Below are positions 44,933 to 59,078 of a stretch of 64,000 nt of DNA, in pieces (the stretch's first letter is position 1; each line of letters starts with the position of its first letter). A program made the translations under genes and the position numbers. Below the pieces are notes generated by a model. The model was given only the letters and a program-made list of their open reading frames with translations, had not been told where the DNA came from and did not search any database. This DNA is from Myxococcota bacterium (GTDB lineage Bacteria; Myxococcota_A; Polyangia; DRWM01): NCBI GenBank assembly GCA_041309365.1, contig JBFYZU010000103.1, positions 1,463 to 65,462 of the forward strand. The letters are read 5' to 3'.

Positions 44933-45979
44933 ATGATACCGCCACGGCCGCTCGGGCACAAGTTTTCTGCACTTGCTCCTGCCCACACCTTGGCTAGAAT
45001 GGACGCCGGATCGACACCCATGACAACCGCCTTTCTCATTGGCCGGGTCCGGGGCGTGAAGCGCTGGATCCAGCTTCTGTGGCTGCTCGTGCCTGCACTT
45101 GCGCTGGTTGAGGTGGGCCACCATGTCTGGATCGAATCCAGGGTGCCGGACAGTCGTGACTGGCAGCAAGCGACTCGGCTTGTGGAAGCGGGCCGCCAGG
45201 CTGGAGATCTCGTCGTGATCTCGCCGTGGTGGGCCTCGCAGGGCTTCATCTGGCTGGGTCGGTTCGTGACCGTCGAGCAGATGGCCCGAGAGGATGACGA
45301 GGGATATGGCCGGATCTGGGAGGTGGCCCTGCCTGGACACCGCCAGGAAGGTTACGAGAAGAAGGGCAAGCTCCTCAAGGAGGACAGGGCGGGGTGCCTG
45401 ACCGTGAGGCTCTGGTCGTTTCCACGAACGCCAGCAACTCTTTTCGACTTCGTCGAGCAAGTTGAAACGAGGGCCAGGGTGTCCATGGTGCCCTCGGCTG
45501 GCGGGCCCGAGGAACCCTGCGTGTTCAGGGCCAACCCCAAGACCGGCTTGGTGCCAAATGCCGCTGTTCAAGGAGGAAAGTTCCGCTGCGACCAGAGGCT
45601 TGCATGGAACTACGTAGCGCGCGAGGTCATCGCCGACCTCGACAACAGGCCCCGTCTCTGCCTCTGGGCTCACCCCATCGACGGCAAGCGCATCGTCATC
45701 GAGTTCTCGGGCGTCCCGGAGGGCGGCGTGATCGAAGGGCACACGGGCAAGAAGTACGAGGCCGACAGGGAGCACGTCGAGCGCCCGCCGATCCTGCTCC
45801 AGGTGAACGCGGCAGGCAAGACCGTGGGTACGGCCATGCACGTGCAGGGCGGTGGCTGGATGCCCTACAGCTTCGATCTGGGGCCAGAGGGTACTGCTGG
45901 CAAGGTCACGTTCGAGGTCTCGAGCGCACAGGCCGGGATGGCCCATTTCTGCTTCACGGCCAAGCTGAGGGACGAGTGA
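44933..45979 (+). CDS. hypothetical membrane-anchored protein
   Basis: One N-terminal TM (WIQLLWLLVPALALV) then a soluble domain. Its stop overlaps a GTG of the downstream GT39 gene. Confidence 0.4.
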   Translation: MIPPRPLGHKFSALAPAHTLARMDAGSTPMTTAFLIGRVRGVKRWIQLLWLLVPALALVEVGHHVWIESRVPDSRDWQQATRLVEAGRQAGDLVVISPWWASQGFIWLGRFVTVEQMAREDDEGYGRIWEVALPGHRQEGYEKKGKLLKEDRAGCLTVRLWSFPRTPATLFDFVEQVETRARVSMVPSAGGPEEPCVFRANPKTGLVPNAAVQGGKFRCDQRLAWNYVAREVIADLDNRPRLCLWAHPIDGKRIVIEFSGVPEGGVIEGHTGKKYEADREHVERPPILLQVNAAGKTVGTAMHVQGGGWMPYSFDLGPEGTAGKVTFEVSSAQAGMAHFCFTAKLRDE

Positions 45980-46002
45980 CGGCTGGCCTGGCACCGGGCC
46001 CC

Positions 46003-47703
46003 ATGCCCGGACGCACCCGGATCGCGGCGCATGCCCTGGGATTGGCCATCGGCACGCTGTACGTGGTCTTGCTGGTCGCAACGGCTTCCGACGTGGGGTT
46101 CGCAAGGGACGAGGGCTTCTACTTCACGGCCGCGGAGCAGTACATGCGCTGGTTCGACTTCATGCGTGAGGACCGGGCCGCGGCCATGACGCAGGAAGGA
46201 GTCGACCGGTTCTGGCGTATCAACAGCGAGCACCCGCCGCTGATGAAGGTGCTCTTCGGCCTGAGCCACAAGCTTTTCGCCGAGAAGCTGGGGTGGATGC
46301 TCGAGTCCACGGCCTACCGATTCCCCGGCATGATCATGGGAGGGCTGCTCCTCTATCTCGTGGTACTGTTCGGAACCTCCATCGGCGGTCTCAGGACGGG
46401 TGTGGCCGCCGCGATCGCCCTCGCCCTCATGCCCAGGTTCTTCTACCACGCGCACCTGGACTGCTTCGATGTGCCCATCACCACCATGTGGTTCGCGGTC
46501 GTGTATGCGTTCTACCGGTCGCTGCGCTCGTGGGCATGGGGCATCGTCACTGGGCTATTGTGGGGGCTGGCCCTGGCCACCAAGCTCAACTCGTTCTTCA
46601 TCCCGGTCACGCTGCTCGTTTTCTGGGTCGTGCTGTACGTGAGGGAGTTCGGGCTCGAAGGGCATGGAGACGCTCCGGGCAGGGGCAGGCTCAGGCTACC
46701 CGGCATCCCCGTGGCCTTCGTGTCCATGGTCACCCTGGGACCGCTGGTACTCTTCGCCATGTGGCCCTGGCTCTGGCACGACACGTTGGAGCGCTTCGGC
46801 GGCTACATGGGATTTCACCGGCACCACCCGTACTACAACATCGAGTATCTCGGTTACACCTACTTCGAGCCCCCGTTCCCCTTCTCCTATCCTTTTGTCA
46901 TGACCCTCGTCACGATCCCCCTGGTGACCACGGTGCTGGCGCTGACGGGCATGGCAGGCAGGCTCGTGACCTCCACACGGCGCATCCTGGGAGGGATCTC
47001 GCCTCTTGCGCTCGAGACCCTCGTGCACGAGCGGACACAGCGAGGCATCACTCTTCTCCTGTTCCTCAACATGCTCGTGCCCATGCTCATCATCGCCTGG
47101 CCGAGCACCCCCATCTTCGGTGGCACAAAGCACTGGATGCCGGCCTGGCCCTTCATCGCCCTGTTCACAGGCCTGGGCTTTGGCATGGCGGCCGACGGTG
47201 TGACCGGGCTCATGGAACGGGCGCCCGCGTGGTTGCGCGCCGGCGCGGGAGGCAAGCGCGTCGTCGCGGCCGGCCTGGGGCTCCTGCTCTTGGCACCGGC
47301 CGCCCAGCAGACACAGGCGAGCCACCCCTTCGGTCTGGCCCACTACACGATGCTCATCGGCGAGACACCGGGAGCCGCGGACGCCGGCATGTGCCGCCAG
47401 TTCTGGGGCTACACCACGGGAAGCGCCCTGGGATGGCTCAACGAGAACGTACCCGAGCGTGGCAGGACGTTCTTTCACGACACGGCCTGGGACAGCTACA
47501 ACATGTACAAGAAGGATGGGATGCTCAGGAACGACATCCTTTGGCACGGGCAGGTGGAAGGCTCGGACGTGGCCATGGTGCACTGGGAGCAGCACATGGC
47601 TGGCTACGAGTATGCCATCTGGACATCCTATGGCACGGTCACACCGGCGTTCGTGGTGACCCACCAGGGAGTCCCCATACTGCCCATCTACGTGTCTCGT
47701 TGA
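46003..47703 (+). CDS. GT39/ArnT/PMT-like membrane glycosyltransferase
   Basis: Polytopic membrane protein with DE motif in the first loop (ARDEGFYF), typical of GT-C PMT_2 family enzymes. Alternative GTG start at 45976. Confidence 0.65.
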   Translation: MPGRTRIAAHALGLAIGTLYVVLLVATASDVGFARDEGFYFTAAEQYMRWFDFMREDRAAAMTQEGVDRFWRINSEHPPLMKVLFGLSHKLFAEKLGWMLESTAYRFPGMIMGGLLLYLVVLFGTSIGGLRTGVAAAIALALMPRFFYHAHLDCFDVPITTMWFAVVYAFYRSLRSWAWGIVTGLLWGLALATKLNSFFIPVTLLVFWVVLYVREFGLEGHGDAPGRGRLRLPGIPVAFVSMVTLGPLVLFAMWPWLWHDTLERFGGYMGFHRHHPYYNIEYLGYTYFEPPFPFSYPFVMTLVTIPLVTTVLALTGMAGRLVTSTRRILGGISPLALETLVHERTQRGITLLLFLNMLVPMLIIAWPSTPIFGGTKHWMPAWPFIALFTGLGFGMAADGVTGLMERAPAWLRAGAGGKRVVAAGLGLLLLAPAAQQTQASHPFGLAHYTMLIGETPGAADAGMCRQFWGYTTGSALGWLNENVPERGRTFFHDTAWDSYNMYKKDGMLRNDILWHGQVEGSDVAMVHWEQHMAGYEYAIWTSYGTVTPAFVVTHQGVPILPIYVSR

Positions 47704-47792
47704 CGCGTCGACCGGTTCCCATTACATTTACAACTTAGTTGGAATCCCGACGCACGGACATTCAGTGACCCCCACAAGGGGAGGAGCCAGCA

Positions 47793-49436
47793 ATGATACG
47801 AACTCTCGTGGCAACAGCCGCCATCTCCTTGTTGTCCCTGATGGCAGGGCGCGTCGAGGCAGGCGATCCCATGGACATCGAGGCCATCAACGCAGCCATA
47901 GAAGCGTCAGGGGCGAACTGGGTAGCCGGCCCCACCTCGCGAACAGGGATGGACCCTGCCGAGAGGTCCTTGCCCAGCCTCGAGCAGGTGCTCGCCGGCA
48001 TGGCCCCTCCCTGGACCCCGGCGCCGCCCTCGGGCCTGCCACCAGCACCGCCCCCACCCACCCCCGACCCGGATGCCGTGCGTCTCGCCTGGAACGACTA
48101 CGAGGGCGCGGACTGGATGACCGAGATCAGGGACCAGGGCATGTGCGGAGGGTGCTGGGCCTTCGCCTCGCTGGCCGCGGTGGAAGGGTGCTACAACGTG
48201 GCTCTGGGCACACCCTATGCGGACATCGACCTTTCCGAGCAGGTCATCATCTCGTGTACCACGGGCGGATGCAGCGGCGGAATGCCCGAGCCCGTCGTGC
48301 AGTACCTGCGCACCACAGGCGTGCCGGACGAGCAGTGTTACCCCTACACGGCAACGGACGGCGACTGCGACAGCAAGTGCGCCGACTGGGTCGAGCGCTC
48401 GTTCACCATCTCTCGCTGGGGCTGGGTCTTCGACCTCTACGGCCAGGAGCAGGCAATCAAGAACCGCTTGCTCACAGGCCCCGTGTACTCCTCCATGACG
48501 GTGTACTCGGACTTCAATGCCTACACCACGGGCGTCTACGAGCACGTGACGGGCGCCGAGGAGGGAGCCCACGCCGTGACCATCGTGGGTTGGGACGACG
48601 ACCACGACAGCTGGATAGTCAAGAACTCGTGGGGGACGTTCTGGGGAGACGAGGGGTACTTCGAGATCAAGAGAGGCGATTCCGACATCGGTATGCACGT
48701 TGTTTACGTAGAGGTCAACCCTGCGGATCTTCCAGGGCACCCCTGCATCCTGCCCCAGAGTCGGTCGATCGAGGTTGTGAGCGGCGGCGATCCCGTGACC
48801 CTGGAGTTCTCCATGACAAACTGCGGCGGGACCACCCTCGACTGGACCGCCACACCGGATCCCACAACGGGATGGCTGTCGGTCACGCCGGAGTCGGGGA
48901 CGCTCCTCATCGGTGCAGGCACGGTGCTGACCGCGACCGTGGATCCGGAGACGCTCACGAGGCTCGGCCCGTGGGCCGGTTCGGTGGTCGTGCACGGAGG
49001 CGTGAGCGACGCACGCGGCCACATCGACATCGAGGTGGTGAGCACACCTTCCGAGGCGGACTTCACGGCCACGCCCACGAGCGGCCCCGTGCCTCTCGAG
49101 GTGGATTTCACGAACACGTCCACGGGCACGTTCTTCACCTCGAACTGGACATTCGGTGATGGAGGCATACTCAACGGACGCAACGCGACGCACCTGTACG
49201 AGGAGGAAGGGGTGTACACGGTCTCCTTGAGCATCACCGGGCCGGACGGCACGGACACCGAGACCAAGGAGGAGTACATCACCGTGCTCCCACCCGCGCC
49301 GGACCCCCTTCCGGACGAGGTCGCGGACGAACCGGCGGACGTGGAACCGGACGTCGCGACCGATGCGCCGCAGGACACCACGGAGACACCCGGTACAGGC
49401 GCCGATCCCGGATGCGGCTGTGCCATGGTGCACTGA
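47793..49436 (+). CDS. secreted papain-like (C1A) cysteine protease with PKD domain
   Basis: Catalytic QGMCGGCWAFAS. His block (HAVTIVGWDDD) and NSWG block. PKD signature WTFGDG...GVYTVSLSITG. Signal peptide. Confidence 0.8.
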   Translation: MIRTLVATAAISLLSLMAGRVEAGDPMDIEAINAAIEASGANWVAGPTSRTGMDPAERSLPSLEQVLAGMAPPWTPAPPSGLPPAPPPPTPDPDAVRLAWNDYEGADWMTEIRDQGMCGGCWAFASLAAVEGCYNVALGTPYADIDLSEQVIISCTTGGCSGGMPEPVVQYLRTTGVPDEQCYPYTATDGDCDSKCADWVERSFTISRWGWVFDLYGQEQAIKNRLLTGPVYSSMTVYSDFNAYTTGVYEHVTGAEEGAHAVTIVGWDDDHDSWIVKNSWGTFWGDEGYFEIKRGDSDIGMHVVYVEVNPADLPGHPCILPQSRSIEVVSGGDPVTLEFSMTNCGGTTLDWTATPDPTTGWLSVTPESGTLLIGAGTVLTATVDPETLTRLGPWAGSVVVHGGVSDARGHIDIEVVSTPSEADFTATPTSGPVPLEVDFTNTSTGTFFTSNWTFGDGGILNGRNATHLYEEEGVYTVSLSITGPDGTDTETKEEYITVLPPAPDPLPDEVADEPADVEPDVATDAPQDTTETPGTGADPGCGCAMVH

Positions 49437-49448
49437 GGAACAAGGCAC

Positions 49449-50804
49449 ATGAAACCGCAAGATCTCGTCACGGTCGTCACGCTGCTGTGCATGGGATGCG
49501 GAGGAACCGTGAGCACGGCCGGCGATGCGGGTGCGGACTGGACGAACGATATCGCGATGGACATCGGGCATGACGGCATCCTCGTATGCGGAGACGAGCG
49601 TACGCCTCCGGGGGGCGGCTCGTGGCCCATCGTCAACGGAAGCCTCGTTTGGGATACGGCGGTCGTGGATCTCGCGGACGGTCAGGCGCTCGCCGTGGGT
49701 GCGCTCATGTCACAGGGATACGGCGGCGAGTGGGACAATATCTGCACGGCCACGCTCGTGGCTCCGGCCCTCGTGCTCACGGCAGCTCACTGCGTGCGAG
49801 GCTGGAGCGGCGACGAGCCCGCGTCCTCTTTCCGGTTCGCCGTGGGAGACGACGTGGCTTCGCCCGTGCACATGTATGCGCCCATTCTCGCCCAGTCCAA
49901 CCCCAGCTACGCCGGAAGCTGGGGTGGAAGCGCCGAATGGGACGTGGCCGTGCTCGTGCTCGGCGAGCCCGCCATGACGGCCGTGCCTGCCATCGAGCCC
50001 ATCCCCATGAACTGCGAGGTCATCGAGTCCACCGCGTTCGTTGGACAGGATGTGCAGAACGTCGGGTACGGGATCACGGACACCGACTGGGGCGCTTTGC
50101 CCAACACGCTCAGGTGGTGGACAGTGGAGGAGGTCGTGGCGCTCGGCGCGTACGACTTCACAGTGGACGGTCACGGTGTGAGCAGCGTGTGCAACGGCGA
50201 TTCTGGTGGACCCAGCCTGTGGACCATGCCGGACGGCACGATCCGGGTCATGGGCACCGTGAGCTGGGGCGCACCCGACTGCGTGAGCGAGGATCACTTC
50301 GCCCGCGTGGACTACAACTGCGGTTTTATTTCTGGATTCCTCGAGAGCTGCGGTGAAGTCACGCCGGAGGGGTTCTGCGACGGCGACCAGGCCGTCTGGT
50401 GCGAGGGTGGCTCGCTCACTCGCGTAGACTGCGCGGCCTCGGGCCGCATCTGCGCCGACGACGGTACGGGACACATGCGGTGCATCGACCTTTCCGACCC
50501 CTGCGGCGATGTCACGGAGCAGGGCACCTGCGAGGGCAACACGGCCGTCTGGTGCGAGGCAGGGGCGCTGATGAGCCTGGACTGCGCCTTGACGGGGCTT
50601 GTCTGCGGTGACGATGGCACGGGTCGCATGCGCTGCCTCGAGGAGGATCCCTGCTTTGGCCTGGGATGGGAAGGCGCCTGTGAGGGCAACGACGCGATAT
50701 GGTGCGAGGATGGAAACATCCGCCGCCGCCTGTGCACGGACTGCGGCCAGATCTGCGGCTTCGACACGGACATGGGTGCCTACTACTGTATTGACCCGGC
50801 CTGA
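49449..50804 (+). CDS. trypsin-like (S1) serine protease lipoprotein with four C-terminal Cys-rich repeats
   Basis: TAAHC, DVAVLVL and GDSGGP triad blocks. Lipobox LLCMGC. 4 x about 40-aa CxGxxAVWCExGxLxxxxCxxxGxxCxDDGTGxMRC. Confidence 0.8.
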   Translation: MKPQDLVTVVTLLCMGCGGTVSTAGDAGADWTNDIAMDIGHDGILVCGDERTPPGGGSWPIVNGSLVWDTAVVDLADGQALAVGALMSQGYGGEWDNICTATLVAPALVLTAAHCVRGWSGDEPASSFRFAVGDDVASPVHMYAPILAQSNPSYAGSWGGSAEWDVAVLVLGEPAMTAVPAIEPIPMNCEVIESTAFVGQDVQNVGYGITDTDWGALPNTLRWWTVEEVVALGAYDFTVDGHGVSSVCNGDSGGPSLWTMPDGTIRVMGTVSWGAPDCVSEDHFARVDYNCGFISGFLESCGEVTPEGFCDGDQAVWCEGGSLTRVDCAASGRICADDGTGHMRCIDLSDPCGDVTEQGTCEGNTAVWCEAGALMSLDCALTGLVCGDDGTGRMRCLEEDPCFGLGWEGACEGNDAIWCEDGNIRRRLCTDCGQICGFDTDMGAYYCIDPA

Positions 50805-50828
50805 GGCTTTCCCTTACACACGTAGATC

Positions 50829-51494
50829 ATGAGCGCAGGATATCCAGGCGGGTACGGGCAGCCCGGTTTTCCGGGATCCCACGCCCCTGGCCAGGCCCCG
50901 TTCCCCCAGCAGGGCCCAAACCTCGAGCCGGGGCCTGCTTCTCCCGAGGGAATGGGAACCGGTGCCAAGGTGGGCATCGGCATAGCAATCGGTTGTGCGA
51001 CTGCAATCCTCGTGCTTCTTGTCGTGATGCTGGCCGCGGGTGCCTGCACCTGCCAGGCCTGCTCGAGCTGCTGCAGCCAGATGAACGATCTCGCACAGAA
51101 GTCGCGAGAGATGGAGGAAAGAGAATCCGCCCGGATCAACGCCGTGGGGGAGACTGTCCACGTTTCCACCTTCGCCGTCATGGTGTCCGAGGCTCAGAGA
51201 CAGGAGTCCACGGTGGTGGTCAGCCTGGACATCGAGAACACGTCCTCCATCGAGGAAGAGCTCGACCCCACGCAGTTCATCCTCGAGGACTCGGCCGGGA
51301 AGCGTTACGCCGTGGATCGGGAGAAGGCCAGGCTCACGATGGACGGCGTGCAGGCCGGTGACACCATCCCGGCGCAGAGCACGAGGACCGTGAGGGCCGT
51401 CTTCTCCGTCGCGCCCGAGGCCAAGGGCCTCGTCCTGCAGTTCAAGACACCCGCACCATCCACCTACAGCCGGCGCTTCGGCCTGGGGATCTGA
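50829..51494 (+). CDS. DUF4352-like membrane protein
   Basis: Gly/Pro-rich N-terminus, one TM, then a beta-sandwich region (VVVSLDIENTS...FILEDSAGKRY) resembling DUF4352. Confidence 0.45.
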   Translation: MSAGYPGGYGQPGFPGSHAPGQAPFPQQGPNLEPGPASPEGMGTGAKVGIGIAIGCATAILVLLVVMLAAGACTCQACSSCCSQMNDLAQKSREMEERESARINAVGETVHVSTFAVMVSEAQRQESTVVVSLDIENTSSIEEELDPTQFILEDSAGKRYAVDREKARLTMDGVQAGDTIPAQSTRTVRAVFSVAPEAKGLVLQFKTPAPSTYSRRFGLGI

Positions 51495-51496
51495 GC

Positions 51497-52216
51497 ATGA
51501 AAGCCAGCCCCATGTCCGCAGCGCTTCACCTGGTCTCCCGGGCAATGGGCCGCGGATCGCCGGCATCGCTCGCACCCTGGCTCGAGGGAGAGCTCGTGAG
51601 CGCGGCCCTCGCGCAGGCAGGCGGTCCGGAACGAGAGGCCGCATCGTTCGCGCCCCTTCACCCGACGTGGGTCACGAAACCTCTTCTCGACCTGCCCGGG
51701 GCAGCGAGGGCCGGCTTGCTGATGATCCTCGGTCAGGAACTGGCCCGGTACGCGGCCCTGGCGCTGGAAGCACGAGGCCTGGAACCCCTCCAGACGGTGG
51801 GGTGCTCGCCGCCAGCGGCCGCCTCGGCAACAGGACTCGTGCGGTCCCTGTTCGCCATCCCTCAGGCGACAGCCGACGATCCGCGCGAGGATCCGGCACG
51901 CTTCCTCACACGGGATGCCGATCGCGTTCCGGTGTCCACCGTCTTCGAGCGCTGGCCAACGGTCGCAAGAGAAGTCGAGGCGGATATCCAGGCCGCGCTG
52001 CCACCCGGTCTTGCGGGGATGGACAGAGTCATGACGGCAATGGCCGCCTGTCTGAGCGACCGCGAGGACCTGGCCGGATCGGTGGCGCGAGGACTGCCCC
52101 GACACATCGGACTCACGTTCATGCGGGCACGCAACCGGTGGTGGCTCGCTCTGAAGCCTGGTGAGCCTGCAATGCTGCTCGCCGCTCTTGGAATGGAGGG
52201 ACGATGGGACGCGTGA
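51497..52216 (+). CDS. hypothetical protein (precedes and overlaps FliH/SctL-like gene)
   Basis: 239-aa Ala/Leu-rich ORF. Start is 2 nt after the upstream stop. Overlaps the next gene by 13 nt. Confidence 0.4.
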   Translation: MKASPMSAALHLVSRAMGRGSPASLAPWLEGELVSAALAQAGGPEREAASFAPLHPTWVTKPLLDLPGAARAGLLMILGQELARYAALALEARGLEPLQTVGCSPPAAASATGLVRSLFAIPQATADDPREDPARFLTRDADRVPVSTVFERWPTVAREVEADIQAALPPGLAGMDRVMTAMAACLSDREDLAGSVARGLPRHIGLTFMRARNRWWLALKPGEPAMLLAALGMEGRWDA

Positions 52217-52752
52217 TCAAGGGGCAGGGCCGCTTCGAGGCAGAGGAGCTGGCCTCGGTGGGCACGGCGCGAGAGATGCTCGCACAGGTCGAGCGGTTGA
52301 GGGAGCGTGCACGCCAGGAGGGGTTCGAGGAGGGCACGGCACGAGCGGCCGCGTTGCTCGTTCTGGCCGAGCAGATCAGGCGAGGCGCCGTCGAACGGGC
52401 CATGGAGGATGTCGTAGATCTGAGCCTGAACGTGGCCGGCGCACTGCACGAGCGCGCGGCACGCGAGGATCCTGCCATTGTGATGTCGGTTGCGAAGGAG
52501 GCCCTGGAGAGGATGGGCAATGCACGGCCGGTCATCTTGCGTGTAGCCCCCACCGAGGCCCTCGCTGCAGAGGATCTCGTCGTGCGGTGCTCGGGCTGCG
52601 TGAAGGTCGTTGCCGAAGATGGCATCGAGGCCGGCGGCTGCATCGTCGAGTCGAGCACGGGCACGGTGGACGCAAGGGTGCCCACGAGGCTCGAGGCCCT
52701 GCGCAGGGCCCTCATCCTGTCACGAGGATCGAAGAACGGCGGCGACGCTTGA
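52204..52752 (+). CDS. FliH/SctL (YscL/HrpE)-like protein
   Basis: Coiled-coil N-half and a C-terminal block AGGCIVESSTGTVDARVPTRLEAL resembling the FliH/SctL GGCxxET..G.VDAS/A signature. Confidence 0.5.
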   Translation: MGRVIKGQGRFEAEELASVGTAREMLAQVERLRERARQEGFEEGTARAAALLVLAEQIRRGAVERAMEDVVDLSLNVAGALHERAAREDPAIVMSVAKEALERMGNARPVILRVAPTEALAAEDLVVRCSGCVKVVAEDGIEAGGCIVESSTGTVDARVPTRLEALRRALILSRGSKNGGDA

Positions 52753-53768
52753 AGGACGATCCCGCACGGGACGCGCCTCGACGGCCGGGCTCCATCGCGA
52801 GGCGGCTGCTCGGCACCAACCCCTACAGCCCAGGCCGCATAGTCTTCCATCTCGCCCTCTTCGCAGTCACCGTGGCAACCACGCTCTGGGTCGGCGCAGG
52901 ATACAACCCAGAGGCATTCGTGGCCGCGCCGAACCCCGGCCTGTGGGACCTTTTGCGCGCGGGTATCCCCTACTCGGCAACACTGATGGCCATCCTTCTG
53001 TGTCACGAGATGGGCCACTTCGTGGCCGGCCGTATCCACCATGTCCGCCTCAGCCTCCCGTTCTTCATCCCCATCCCCTTTGCGCTAGGGACCATGGGGG
53101 CCATCATCGCCATGCCGCCCCTCGAGTCGCGAAAGAAGCTGCTGGACGTGGGGGCGGCAGGCCCTCTGGCCGGGCTCGTGGTGTCCACCATCACGATGAT
53201 CGTGGGGCTTTCCCTCTCGACCGTCACCGATCTGCGCGACCTGCCACAGGGAACGGTCGTATTCCAGGAAGGTCAGAGCCTCTACTACATGCTGCTCAAG
53301 TGGGTCGTCCTCGGCTCCATGCCCGAGGGTCACGACGTCATGCTCCACCCCGTGGCCTGGGCCTCCTGGATAGGCTTTCTGGTCACCATGCTCAACCTGC
53401 TTCCCGTAGGACAGCTGGACGGCGGTCACGTGGCATACGCGATTCTCGGAGAGAGGCAGAACCGTGTCTCCGGCCGCCTGCACCTGGGCCTCGTGGCGCT
53501 GGGCCTTGCAGTGAGCGCCTACCACGGTATGGGTGCCTGGCTGGCTGGCGCACCGTCGGATCAGATCTGGACGCAGGCCCAGTCCGGCCTGTCGTGGTTC
53601 GTGTGGGCCTTCGTGCTGGGCATCATCCGCAGGCTCTCGAGAGGATATCATCCCCCTGCCCCGGATCTCACACCCCTGGGAGCTGGCCGCATGAGCGTCG
53701 GGATAGCATGTCTGGTCATGTTCGTGCTGCTCTTCATGCCCGTGCCGCTGCAGGTCATGGAGATCTGA
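52749..53768 (+). CDS. M50-family site-2 protease-like membrane metalloprotease
   Basis: HExxH in TM (LLCHEMGHFVAG) and LDG motif (LNLLPVGQLDGGHV). TTG start overlapping the upstream stop (TTGA). Confidence 0.7.
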   Translation: MKDDPARDAPRRPGSIARRLLGTNPYSPGRIVFHLALFAVTVATTLWVGAGYNPEAFVAAPNPGLWDLLRAGIPYSATLMAILLCHEMGHFVAGRIHHVRLSLPFFIPIPFALGTMGAIIAMPPLESRKKLLDVGAAGPLAGLVVSTITMIVGLSLSTVTDLRDLPQGTVVFQEGQSLYYMLLKWVVLGSMPEGHDVMLHPVAWASWIGFLVTMLNLLPVGQLDGGHVAYAILGERQNRVSGRLHLGLVALGLAVSAYHGMGAWLAGAPSDQIWTQAQSGLSWFVWAFVLGIIRRLSRGYHPPAPDLTPLGAGRMSVGIACLVMFVLLFMPVPLQVMEI

Positions 53769-53863: not shown

Positions 53864-54148
53864 ATGATGATCTTCGATAAAAGTGTTCAATTGCTAAAAT
53901 TGCTCGCGGACAACACGCGATTCAAGATCATCTGCATGCTCGCCGAGCGCCCGCACTTCGTGCACGAGATCGTGAAGAACACCGGCGTGTCGTCATCGGC
54001 GGTGAGCCAGCAACTCAGGCTGCTCAAGACCGCGGGCCTGGTCAAGGATCAACGCTTCGGCCAGAGCGTACAGTACGAGTTGACCGACGAGCACGTCTTC
54101 CAGATCCTGGACGCCGTCTTCGAGCACGTGCGCGATCAGGAACGCTAG
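53864..54148 (+). CDS. ArsR/SmtB-family transcriptional regulator
   Basis: LLKLLADNTRFKIICML...HFVHEIVKNTGVSSSAVSQQLRLLKTAGLV winged HTH. Lower-GC leader. Confidence 0.85.
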   Translation: MMIFDKSVQLLKLLADNTRFKIICMLAERPHFVHEIVKNTGVSSSAVSQQLRLLKTAGLVKDQRFGQSVQYELTDEHVFQILDAVFEHVRDQER

Positions 54149-56423: not shown

Positions 56424-59078
56424 CTAGTCACGGAGCAATCTGGTGTGGACATCCCGGAAAAACAGCAGTGCCGGATCGTCGGTCTCCGCCTTGAGCAGGG
56501 CGTCGAGCTCGGACTGCACCTGGTGACGCCTGTCCCATCCGCGACGGGCGAGCGCGGCGAGAGTGAGGTCCTGCTCGGCCGCCATCTCCTTGACCTGGGC
56601 CTCGCATCCTGACTGAGCCAGGGCGCCTGTCAGAAAGGCCATCCTCTCGTCGCAACCGTGCGGGTTGCGAAGGAACTGCTCGACGGTTCTCGTGGCTGCC
56701 GAGCCGTAACGTGCGAGCACGAAGGCCATGATCTTCCACTCGGGTTCGTCGCGCTCGCACAGCGCATTGATGAGCGGTACCACGGCGGTGCGTATCCTGA
56801 GCTTGCCCAGGGCCACGGCCGAGGCGAGTCGAACCAGCGGGGCGTTCGACTTCAACCCGTCCAGAAAGAAGCTCTCGCCAGCCTCGTCGAGCTGCATGAT
56901 GTACGGGATGAGCTCGAGGATGTCGGCGGGCGCCATGCATTCCATTGCCACCGCGATCTCGGCGAGTCCCTGAGGGCCCCCACGACGCAGGATCTCCACT
57001 GCGGCCGCCGCCCTGCGGGATGGCCTGAAGAGCCAGCGGGAGAGCACGTCTCCTTGCAGGTCCGGAAGCGGTGTGGCGTCAAGGGCGGCCACCTTCTCGA
57101 CGCCCGGGACCTTCAGATCCGAGACGCCCAGGAAATCGAGGGCCATCTCCGCCACCTCCAGGCTCACGGGCACGCCGTGCCTGCCGACCGCGTCCAGGAG
57201 GCGGCGCCAGTTGTCCGTCATCTGCTCGTGCGAGAGATCCGTGCCTGCGCGACAGATGGCGAGGAATGCGCCCAAGGAATGCATGAGCAGGGCCGGAACG
57301 TCATCTGCCAGCCCCATGGACACGGCGTCCTCGGGCAGAGCGCCGGGCAGATCCAGGCCTGCCGAGACCGCCCGCGTGAGGATGCGCCTCTTGATTGTAG
57401 CGATGCCCTCCAGGGGGAATGAGTAGATGCGTACGAGCCGTCGGACGTTCTCCTGTGCCCCCCACTCGTCGAGATCCGACAGGGCCTCGACCAGGCCAGC
57501 GTGGCTCACGTGATCCTCGACGTACCTGGCGTGAAACGGGAATGGCTTCTTGAGCTCATCGAGAAGCCTGCCCATGATGTACGGCTCGTCCACGGCATCC
57601 TGGCTCTGCATGTCGGGATTGTCGAGGAAGATCCTCTCCACGTCCGCGGCGATGCTCTTGACGTTGCCCTCGATGCGATTGGCCGCTTTGAACGTCGCTT
57701 CACGCCCCATATCCGGCGTCACGAGCGTGACGAGCGCCGAGCAGCTCTCGCCGAGCTTGCCCACGATGCGCCGGTGCACCCTTACCTTGTAGTCCAGAAG
57801 CCAGGGGAAAAGATGCGCCTTGCCCGAAAGGGGCCTCACGGCCAAGCTCAGCACGATCCATGTGTAACCGGACCTGTCCTCGACCTGATGCACCCTGAAG
57901 CGGACTGACGTCTTCCCGACGTCACGGAACATGGAATCGTCCCCGGAGACCGCGAACAGCTCGACGCGATCTCCGTCGAGACGCACGAACCGTCTGTCCC
58001 TGCCCGAGAGCGCCTCGCGCGCCTCTGCATCGAGTCCCCTCGGCGAGGGTCCCGTCTTTCGAGGCACCGCGGCCGGGCTGGCGGCCCTGGCCCTCGTCGG
58101 ACGTGCGGTCGCCAGTGCAGGCTTCGGTGCCGTTACGGGTGCCCTGTCCTCGACCTCAGCCTCCTCGTCGAGGAGGTCCGTCTCCTCGATGACGTCGTCA
58201 TCGGAAACGGCGTATTCCGCTGGACGGCCTGCGGTCCGCGAGGCAGGGGCCTTCGGCAGCGCCTGCTCGATGCTCCTCTCGAGCGTCGATGCAGGCGACG
58301 AGATCTCCTCGAAAATGGCTGCAGGCCTGGCCTGGGTCACGACTTCCGCAGGAAACCTGCCGGGTAGAGGGCCGTCAGGCTCACGGACGGTGAAGGTGCG
58401 GTCGCGCGTCTCGATCTGCCGGGCGAACTCCTCCACCTCGATCCGCCGCCGCTCGATCTCCTGGGACTGGCGCGAGAGCGCGACCCTGAACTCCTCGACC
58501 TCCTGCATCTTGCGGTCGACCTCGACGAGCCTGGCCTCGATGTCTGCCGTTCGGGCGGCGATCTTTTGCTCTCTCGAGCGCACGTCCCGGGCCTCGGCCT
58601 CGAGTGCCTCCTTGAGTCGGGCGAGATCCATGTTGACAGCGGCGTGACCTGGAGCCGACAGTGCGGGACGCAGGTTCGCGTGACCATGGACGACCCCGAA
58701 ATCGACGACGTGCTCGGGCAGGCCTCCCGCGGCTGCCGACAACGACTCGAGAAGCCCGACCAGGGGATCTGTCTCCTCGTGCCTCTCGCAATCAGGAATA
58801 TAAAGGACGAGCCTCTTCGAGGCGGGATCGTGAAGGACGCATCGGGCATCGACCACGGCCCTGACACCGCAACCCGGGCAGATGCCCTGGTTGAGATTGC
58901 CATCGAGCAAGCGTTGCAACAGATCCGCACGCTCGGAAACGTCTATGGATGTGTGCAGGTCCATGGGGTAGCGATCGCCGCAGGGGCATGCATAGAGGGT
59001 CACCCGTGTGCTCGACCTCGTGTCCTTCGTCGATCTTGCAGTCATCGGCCACTCTCCCCGGGGCAAAAAGACTAGCAC
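56424..59078 (-). CDS. CpXC-domain zinc-ribbon / coiled-coil / HEAT-like repeat protein
   Basis: N-terminus YACPCGDRY ... GICPGCG (two CxxC pairs). Long charged coiled-coil (EARDVRSREQKIAARTADIEARLVEVDRKMQE...). Acidic/Pro-rich linker. C-terminal alpha-solenoid. Confidence 0.45.
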   Translation of the reverse strand: MLVFLPRGEWPMTARSTKDTRSSTRVTLYACPCGDRYPMDLHTSIDVSERADLLQRLLDGNLNQGICPGCGVRAVVDARCVLHDPASKRLVLYIPDCERHEETDPLVGLLESLSAAAGGLPEHVVDFGVVHGHANLRPALSAPGHAAVNMDLARLKEALEAEARDVRSREQKIAARTADIEARLVEVDRKMQEVEEFRVALSRQSQEIERRRIEVEEFARQIETRDRTFTVREPDGPLPGRFPAEVVTQARPAAIFEEISSPASTLERSIEQALPKAPASRTAGRPAEYAVSDDDVIEETDLLDEEAEVEDRAPVTAPKPALATARPTRARAASPAAVPRKTGPSPRGLDAEAREALSGRDRRFVRLDGDRVELFAVSGDDSMFRDVGKTSVRFRVHQVEDRSGYTWIVLSLAVRPLSGKAHLFPWLLDYKVRVHRRIVGKLGESCSALVTLVTPDMGREATFKAANRIEGNVKSIAADVERIFLDNPDMQSQDAVDEPYIMGRLLDELKKPFPFHARYVEDHVSHAGLVEALSDLDEWGAQENVRRLVRIYSFPLEGIATIKRRILTRAVSAGLDLPGALPEDAVSMGLADDVPALLMHSLGAFLAICRAGTDLSHEQMTDNWRRLLDAVGRHGVPVSLEVAEMALDFLGVSDLKVPGVEKVAALDATPLPDLQGDVLSRWLFRPSRRAAAAVEILRRGGPQGLAEIAVAMECMAPADILELIPYIMQLDEAGESFFLDGLKSNAPLVRLASAVALGKLRIRTAVVPLINALCERDEPEWKIMAFVLARYGSAATRTVEQFLRNPHGCDERMAFLTGALAQSGCEAQVKEMAAEQDLTLAALARRGWDRRHQVQSELDALLKAETDDPALLFFRDVHTRLLRD

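Follow-up and report, generated by a model that had tools for sequence, protein, structure and literature searches.

A FliH/SctL-family protein encoded beside a PDZ-less M50 site-2 protease in uncultured Myxococcota

The pairing of a gene for a FliH/SctL-family protein with a gene for an M50 site-2 protease (S2P) is a robust comparative-genomic association. We describe it here from a stretch of 64,000 nucleotides (nt) of a Myxococcota bacterium (GTDB lineage Bacteria; Myxococcota_A; Polyangia; DRWM01), taken from contig JBFYZU010000103.1 of GenBank assembly GCA_041309365.1 (positions 1,463 to 65,462, forward strand) and called the window below. In the window the pair closes a row of six plus-strand genes, g1 to g6 (47793-53768; Table 1), which encode a C1 cysteine protease, an S1 serine protease, a DUF4352 membrane protein, a helical protein, the FliH/SctL-family protein and the M50 protease. 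On balance, and with limited confidence, we favor the reading that the locus is an operon of an uncultured myxococcote, that its stable core consists of the helical protein, the FliH/SctL-family protein and an M50 protease lacking PDZ and CBS domains, and that the FliH-like and FliG-like proteins are exapted partners of the S2P.

The initial annotation of this DNA, made from its letters and a list of open reading frames (ORFs), had described six tightly packed genes, and both the frames and the spacings were reproduced (+12, +24, +2, -13 and -4 nt, in order from g1 to g6) with one correction: the M50 gene starts with TTG at 52749, overlapping the stop of g5 in the sequence cTTGA. Pfam likewise reproduces every one of its domain calls (C1 protease with PKD, S1 protease with Cys repeats, DUF4352, an unknown gene, FliH and M50). 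The GC content of the window is ~65%, all six frames are open, and GC content at third codon positions is 0.73-0.84 in the called frames. Ribosome-binding sites of the GGAGG/GAGGA type precede g1, g2 and g5.

On sequence grounds, the case that g5 encodes a genuine FliH/SctL homolog, as the initial annotation had proposed, is solid, with three comparisons in agreement: the Pfam FliH model matches it at 4.9e-15 (56 bits against a cutoff of 24.1) over positions 8-127 of its 128, including the C-terminal domain; a profile of the orphan FliH-like proteins matches chain 5b0o_E, the Salmonella FliH in the FliH-FliI crystal structure 5B0O, at 8.8e-10; and the FliH-like family aligns to E. coli FliH with an hhalign probability of 95.5%. 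An alignment of seven orphans keeps a ...R(I/V)IK(A/G)... N-terminus and a C-terminal GGC-IE-x-G-x-DA...L block. Among the NCBIfam models PRK06937 comes closest, with 52.5 of the 159 bits that its cutoff requires, and all 12 matching FliH/SctL-family models fall below their cutoffs, those for FliH and for SctL (including HrpE/YscL) scoring about alike; g5 is thus not an ortholog of any curated FliH or SctL. It has neither a transmembrane (TM) segment nor a signal peptide and is predicted to be cytoplasmic. With the seven-orphan profile, at least 419 FliH-like proteins are found at E<1e-5, named “FliH/SctL family protein” in their sources. The closest non-orphan relatives of g5 are 35-41% identical, and the nearest that could be placed (P0003, 35%) adjoins a FliI ATPase. 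Compared with the known FliH/SctL proteins (YscL, HrpE; PF02108; 5B0O), g5 shares the above-threshold profile match, the ...RVIKG... start, the GGC-IE-x-G-x-DA motif and, at 182 amino acids (aa), a length close to that of SctL; it differs in that no gene for FliI/SctN, the C-ring or the export gate was found in the window or the flanks of related loci, and in that its gene overlaps that of an M50 protease. To our knowledge, FliH/SctL proteins are known only as tethers or regulators of the ATPase of type III secretion systems (T3SSs), with distant kin in the stalks of rotary ATPases.

The partner, g6, has Peptidase_M50 as its sole Pfam domain (2.5e-22; 79.8 bits against a cutoff of 27.2). The motifs HEMGH (in LLCHEMGHF) and NLLPVGQLDGGH / MLNLLPVGQLDGGH, of the HExxH and NxxPxxxxDG/LDG type, lie inside hydrophobic segments, and a TM scan gives at least five TM segments. 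Neither a PDZ nor a CBS domain was found with Pfam, the RseP model TIGR00054, whose cutoff is 147 bits, reaches 15.8 bits, and a sequence search of the PDB with the M50 protein gave no match. Among well-studied S2Ps, RseP carries PDZ domains and acts after site-1 cleavage of RseA by DegS, and SpoIVFB has a CBS domain and is held by the inhibitors BofA and SpoIVFA. The present locus resembles these systems in the M50 signature (HExxH and LDG in TM segments) and in having potential site-1 proteases and a bitopic protein in the same operon; in contrast, g6 lacks PDZ and CBS domains, the locus encodes neither a substrate of the anti-sigma or pro-sigma kind nor a protein like BofA or SpoIVFA, and the conserved companions are a soluble FliH-like protein and a helical protein. 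No account of companions like these for any S2P turned up in the literature searched. In a Polyangiaceae metagenome-assembled genome (MAG; L005:9023-10918), the M50 frame is open for ~370 codons 5' of the M50 domain, without a Pfam match in that part; this stretch may be a long N-terminal extension or a mere open frame in high-GC DNA.

A scan anchored on M50, using one genome per GTDB species, yielded 52 loci. A FliH-like ORF lies directly 5' of the M50 gene in the window and in L002, L003, L006, L007, L008, L011, L060, L064, L065, L066, L068, L069, L091, L133 and L140/141; in the Polyangiaceae-labelled MAGs L006, L007 and L011 and the Sandaracinaceae MAG L008, a hidden Markov model of the orphan FliH-like proteins finds this ORF abutting or overlapping the M50 start. 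The same arrangement occurs at 8 of 80 metagenome loci, including six of the ten whose M50 is nearest to that of the window. All five look-ups anchored on the FliH-like gene returned a 72-74-aa ORF, the FliH-like gene and the M50 gene, with overlaps of 4-11 nt; these five represent one subfamily, and most loci were anchored on M50, which biases the survey in the FliH-to-M50 direction. Among the relatives, the FliH-like and M50 genes overlap by 4-11 nt or are separated by 1-91 nt. No FliH-like ORF was found, even with the HMMER filters off, beside the M50 genes of the Kofleriaceae loci L004 and L009, of L005, L041 and L061-63, and the M50 loci of Planctomycetota, Gemmatimonadota and others are likewise without one.

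Outside the clade of the window, neither a protease nor DUF4352 or ArsR adjoins the FliH-M50 core. Cassettes of the Polyangiaceae type lie among housekeeping genes, with those for SAICAR synthase and a thiolase upstream and a CTP_transf_like gene downstream, and the gene upstream of the cassette in L008 encodes a PP2C/cNMP-binding protein. Because the core recurs in such other contexts without the proteases and DUF4352, the conserved unit is a three-gene core rather than six genes: a small fast-evolving ORF, the FliH-like gene and the M50 gene, stable across unrelated neighborhoods in many Myxococcota MAGs and metagenome contigs.

Within the clade of the window, gene order is kept over a much longer distance. 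A Deltaproteobacteria MAG (L002) has the order unknown-PMT_2-C1-S1-DUF4352-g4-FliH-M50-ArsR; a Myxococcales MAG (L003), on a contig that begins inside the block, has DUF4352-g4-FliH-M50-ArsR; of L140 and L141, two loci that the g4 family led to, L140 shows the full block order; L143 shows S1-DUF4352-g4 and L144 DUF4352-g4-FliH. These genomes are collinear over at least 25 kb, a stretch that also takes in a GT2 glycosyltransferase and an unknown gene upstream and SGL-like, metallophosphatase, CpXC and two more genes downstream. Thus, the gene order of the initial annotation does hold in relatives, though for all six genes just in this collinear clade, and since the surrounding DNA is equally collinear, we rejected six-gene synteny as specific evidence for, or proof of, a six-gene device.

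The gene upstream of the pair in the window, g4, has no Pfam match but is a real gene. Its longer start (51497) is backed by conserved residues 5' of the start annotated by NCBI, and its product, without TM segment or signal peptide, is predicted to be cytoplasmic. Word-indexed homolog searches with g4 or g5 alone gave almost nothing, and the seven-orphan profile and an exhaustive search were needed; the latter, over 1.84 billion representatives, returned eight clusters related to g4 and nothing further. A metagenome scan using the g4 alignment found no relatives, and sequence searches of the PDB with g4 profiles found no match. A single-sequence AlphaFold2 prediction (predicted local distance difference test, pLDDT, 39) was not used; the model built from a nine-sequence alignment is all-helical, with two domains joined by a disordered linker at residues 100-129, and has a pLDDT of 70 overall and of 82-96 at residues 140-230. 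Searched against the PDB with Foldseek, it gives FliG at ranks 1-4, 6, 9, 10 and 20, with non-significant E-values (0.7-6.5) and low global template modeling scores. Aligned to E. coli FliG with hhalign, g4 gives a best stretch that is also non-significant (E 0.17) and pairs LHPTWVTKPLLDLPGAARAGLL with the EHPQ region of FliG, LHPTW lying opposite EHPQ. The Pfam profiles FliG_N, FliG_M and FliG_C match nothing in the g4 family, and one of its nine members matches MgtE_N, at E 0.17 only. Together these comparisons weakly suggest that g4 carries armadillo-like helical domains of the FliG/MgtE_N type, any homology being putative.

The initial annotation had remarked that g4 takes the position that SctK has ahead of SctL in injectisome operons. 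We rejected an SctK identity: there is neither a sequence nor a fold match to SctK, no SctK chain occurs in either of the two Foldseek PDB lists, and the best fold matches, though weak, are to FliG/MgtE_N. If the FliG likeness is right, g4-g5 would mirror fliG-fliH. In E. coli (b1939-b1940, in fliFGHIJK), as here, the upstream helical gene overlaps the FliH-family gene; unlike there, g4 has 239 aa rather than the 331 aa of FliG and matches no Pfam FliG model, fliF upstream and fliI downstream have no counterparts, and the upstream ORF of other lineages has merely 62-149 aa and no detectable similarity to g4. The most distant member of the g4 family (L142:173-1009, P0134; 278 aa, 26-31% identity) is followed by a gene on the opposite strand and by no FliH-like gene, so the family can occur apart from the FliH-M50 pair.

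Two other types of small upstream ORF were seen. A conserved ORF of 72-74 aa overlaps, in every case, the start of the Polyangiaceae-type FliH-like gene (L054:9780-10004, L057, L058, L011:4173-4397, L006:589-810, L148:5786-6004); it has the motif P.FQRAF.A.SY..GRR...RLAHPERERRAE.LAREL.R.A.AL and no Pfam family on record. The other type, of 149 aa, occurs in L008 and L065. Between g4 and these 74-aa or 149-aa ORFs hhalign detected no similarity, and we do not claim homology.

The pair is found apart from secretion genes. A tblastn search of the window revealed no homolog of a FliI-type ATPase, of FliF/G/M/N/P/Q/R or of FlhA/B, in keeping with the remark of the initial annotation that no flagellar or T3SS ATPase or other T3SS gene is nearby. 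When 12 E. coli flagellar proteins were searched against the window and 146 loci (1.6 Mb), no core gene was found beside any FliH-M50 pair, and the only matches were at the control locus L001, to Gemmatimonadota ATPases without a FliH-like partner and, weakly for FliH, to the FliH-like ORFs themselves. In L054-L059, L148 and L149 the 6-10 kb around the pair contain neither FliI nor another T3SS gene. These results bear on an idea of the initial annotation, that the genes form a module for secretion or maturation of the two proteases; such a module would be a T3SS-like sorting platform of minimal size, in which g4 takes the part of SctK and g5 that of SctL. In its favor, g5 is a real FliH/SctL homolog just 3' of the protease genes, and g4 is placed as sctK (or fliG) is relative to sctL/fliH, but no ATPase, SctV/FlhA, SctRSTU, SctQ or SctD was found in the window or related loci, both proteases bear ordinary N-terminal signal-type sequences, g4 has no SctK match, and the core occurs without proteases in most lineages. 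We consider this module highly improbable.

Alternatively, g5 might be a spare or moonlighting SctL/FliH paralog that serves a T3SS-type or other RecA-type ATPase encoded elsewhere, its adjacency to M50 reflecting co-regulation. At least one of the closest non-orphan relatives of g5 (35-41% identity) is a true FliH encoded next to FliI, and g5 keeps the C-terminal motif with which FliH touches FliI in 5B0O. Further, some Myxococcales have early-branching reduced loci of the non-flagellar T3SS (NF-T3SS) with an ATPase (PMC3459982). These “Myxo” NF-T3SS loci, described in Cystobacterineae rather than in the Polyangia-type lineages here, have kept inner-ring proteins as well as the ATPase and export apparatus and have no FliG (Abby and Rocha 2012, PMC3459982). 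They are like the present locus in that T3SS-derived genes are kept in non-flagellated Myxococcota without needle or secretin, and unlike it in that the present locus has none of the apparatus and its FliH-like gene is paired with a protease. The close coupling to M50 is, however, kept, as overlaps or short gaps, across very divergent lineages and contexts with no T3SS gene within 6-10 kb, and we regard a spare paralog as improbable, if distinctly less so than a secretion module.

Substitution rates were compared between the window and L140 (Table 1), with a dS of 1.0-1.45 for all genes, so that the comparison is an old one. The proteins of g4 and g5 are 36-39% identical to their L140 counterparts, versus 61-77% for their neighbors, and evolve two to four times faster. 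That g4 and g5 evolve fast together, yet under purifying selection, fits interacting adaptors and not pseudogenes. The fast rates (dN/dS 0.42-0.55), together with the patchy distribution among M50 relatives, could instead be taken as signs of decay or chance juxtaposition, with g4 and g5 as non-functional leftovers of a lost flagellar or T3SS cluster; but the ORFs are intact in >20 loci, dN/dS is <1 at saturated dS, and the FliH family is large (at least 419), with motifs and overlaps conserved. A relic is in our judgment scarcely credible.

Under the reading that we favor, the FliH-like protein and the helical protein encoded upstream of it would be exapted cytoplasmic hardware of a flagellum or T3SS. 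By analogy, the FliH-like protein may dock on the cytoplasmic face of the M50 protease as a scaffold or gate and, once docked, could control substrate access or the stability of the protease, replacing the PDZ and CBS domains that regulate other S2Ps. Such docking is mechanistically plausible: the usual role of FliH is to attach a soluble complex to machinery in the membrane, and FliG engages FliF, a membrane protein, at its cytoplasmic tail. We also put forward, tentatively, a more specific proposal that is possible though less likely than not: in Polyangia-type Myxococcota a FliG-like/FliH-like pair (a flagellar rotor/ATPase-tether fragment) would have been exapted to form a cytoplasmic cap that needs no ATPase and serves to gate or scaffold the S2P.

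Several points weigh against this interpretation. The FliH-M50 association is patchy among M50 relatives of similar distance, as judged from a crude neighbor-joining tree of M50 that served just this purpose, and the six-gene synteny is confined to genomes collinear over at least 25 kb. The 74-aa and 149-aa ORFs upstream of the pair in other lineages show no detectable homology to g4, and the FliG likeness is backed by a model of moderate quality (pLDDT 70) and by scores short of significance (Foldseek E 0.7, hhalign E 0.17). An ATPase partner may be encoded elsewhere, the part of the genome covered here being 64 kb. For the extension of the core to a proteolytic cascade, taken up below, the lack of conservation in the N-terminal tail of g3 and the lack of any sigma or anti-sigma domain count in the same direction.

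In the clade of the window the core is joined by the secreted S1 and C1 proteases and by a bitopic protein with a DUF4352 domain, and here, more speculatively, cleavage outside the cell might be followed by a cut of the TM stub by M50, with the DUF4352 protein as substrate or membrane regulator. The C1 protease, g1, matches Peptidase_C1 (4e-50) and has BACON/Ig and PKD domains, a hydrophobic signal-like segment at residues 1-19 and, in its translation, the Q/C/H/N catalytic motifs; its orthologs are 58-71% identical. The S1 protease, g2, matches Trypsin (8.5e-15), shows TAAHC, DVAVL and GDSGGP in its translation and has a signal- or lipoprotein-like N-terminus, and its C-terminus has three ~50-aa Cys-rich repeats, a tandem triplication of ~150 nt. 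Both look like typical myxobacterial exoenzymes with adhesion-type domains. The C-terminus of g1 (49380-49436) reads ...ADPGCGCAMVH* and that of its L140 counterpart ...ADPGCGCQVVS*; the kept DPGCGC, four residues before the stop, looks like the beginning of a C-terminal signal, with Cys, for sorting or lipidation, yet no TM segment follows.

The DUF4352 protein, g3 (Pfam 4.8e-9), has one strong TM segment at residues 44-82. The stretch at 50960-51080 (residues ~44-85) has this segment as a conserved glycine zipper, GAKVGIGIAIGC, followed at once by a six-cysteine cluster, MGACTC(Q/S)ACSSCC, which is invariant in an alignment of five orthologs. The N-terminal tail is Pro/Gly-rich, of low complexity and variable in the same alignment, and is missing in L143. 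The spacing of 1-3 nt between the DUF4352 gene and g4 is conserved, and the two are also adjacent in L143 and L144.

Regulated proteolysis was the other possibility that the initial annotation had raised. Taken at its fullest, the cascade would be a device for regulated intramembrane proteolysis, in which S1, C1 or both make the site-1 cut in the DUF4352 ectodomain, M50 cuts the TM stub, the FliH/FliG-like proteins handle the product and the ArsR-type regulator encoded 3' of g6 reads the output. All types of part lie on one strand, with gaps of 2-24 nt or overlaps; g3 is bitopic, with a Gly-rich, helix-destabilizing TM segment; and the order S1-DUF4352-g4-FliH-M50 recurs in L002, L140, L141 and, partially, in L143 and L144. 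ArsR comes after M50 throughout the clade and is under extreme constraint, being 100% identical in amino acids to L140 and 97% to L002 although the proportion of synonymous differences (pS) is 0.54 and adjacent proteins are 36-77% identical; such constraint is exceptional for a small regulator, its link to the operon being putative. Against the device stand the clade-specific nature of the extra genes, the core elsewhere having no protease, DUF4352 or ArsR neighbor, and the exoenzyme-like character of g1 and g2. Further, the variable cytoplasmic tail of g3 makes the release of a signaling domain unlikely, and a role for g3 as a membrane regulator of M50 is just as possible. A sigma cascade of the RseA/RsiW type was rejected, the g3 tail being of low complexity and dispensable and no sigma or anti-sigma domain being found in the operon or its neighbors (Pfam, NCBIfam). 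We rate the full device as unlikely, though less so than a spare paralog of a distant ATPase.

Table 1. Features of the locus, by position in the window, with dN/dS relative to L140
Feature	Position	Strand	Basis or remark	dN/dS
Conserved unknown protein, 348 aa	44933..45979	+	65-69% identical orthologs, same position in L002 and L140	
PMT_2 (GT-C type) glycosyltransferase, directly 5' of the six genes	45976..47703	+	Pfam PMT_2 1.5e-10; GTG start 45976; syntenic in L002 and L140	
Sigma-70-like promoter match in the 89-nt gap before g1	47700..47728	+	TTGACG-17-TACATT, 9/12	
g1, C1 cysteine protease	47793..49436	+	Pfam	0.24
g2, S1 serine protease	49449..50804	+	Pfam	0.22
g3, DUF4352 single-pass membrane protein	50829..51494	+	Pfam	0.28
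g4, all-helical cytoplasmic protein, 239 aa	51497..52216	+	Predicted model, TM scan	0.55 (dS ~1.4)
g5, FliH/SctL-family cytoplasmic protein, 182 aa	52204..52752	+	Pfam; overlaps g4 by 13 nt and g6 by 4 nt	0.42
g6, M50 site-2 protease, 339 aa	52749..53768	+	Pfam, motifs	0.14
ArsR-type winged helix-turn-helix regulator, 94 aa, 95 nt 3' of g6	53864..54148	+	Pfam HTH_5 5.8e-15	0.01

The neighbors of the six genes in the window are glycosyltransferases, the ArsR-type regulator and unrelated enzymes, and the conserved same-strand block exceeds the six genes, adding the 348-aa protein and PMT_2 upstream and ArsR downstream. The 348-aa protein, for which a Pfam search gave no match and whose stop overlaps the PMT_2 start (GTGA), belongs to the collinear block and not to the core. 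The position of this pair upstream of the protease genes is kept in L002 and L140, and the two might glycosylate the Pro/Thr-rich secreted proteases. The sigma-70-like site is weak evidence of a promoter, with one match seen against 1.1 expected in shuffled sequence, and terminator and promoter scans of the locus gave results at chance level only. Farther downstream, on the minus strand (56424-59078), lies the gene for an 884-aa protein whose sole annotated domain is an N-terminal CpXC zinc-ribbon-like one; it occurs at the same position in L002 and L003 with 47% identity. An Rfam scan of the window returned no RNA element, and a riboswitch or other such element was rejected. An anti-phage defense system was rejected as well: PADLOC has no match for g1-g6, and the ArsR matches are of the generic winged helix-turn-helix kind.

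The families involved (C1, S1, DUF4352, FliH/SctL and M50) are all known, and it is the combination of an S2P with a T3SS-derived accessory pair that seems undescribed. The locus is neither a T3SS nor a flagellar remnant of the Myxo NF-T3SS type, and it does not belong with the RseP/DegS or SpoIVFB/BofA systems. A full-text literature search, which covered few subscription journals, found no paper tying FliH/SctL to an M50 or site-2 protease, nor DUF4352 to an S2P, in line with the view of the initial annotation that this is not a described system. Annotators should be warned that a Myxococcota MAG with a gene labelled “FliH/SctL family protein” need not encode a flagellum or an injectisome. 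If the ATPase-independent cap proposed above is real, S2Ps would be regulated in a way that is new, and the FliH/SctL family would have its first function outside T3SS/ATPase complexes. A large, conserved FliH/SctL-type family tied to an intramembrane protease in non-flagellated bacteria, away from secretion genes, would mean that cytoplasmic parts of the T3SS can be reused for an unrelated membrane machine, which bears on the modularity of flagella and injectisomes, and it would supply a candidate regulator for the large class of S2Ps without PDZ or CBS domains.

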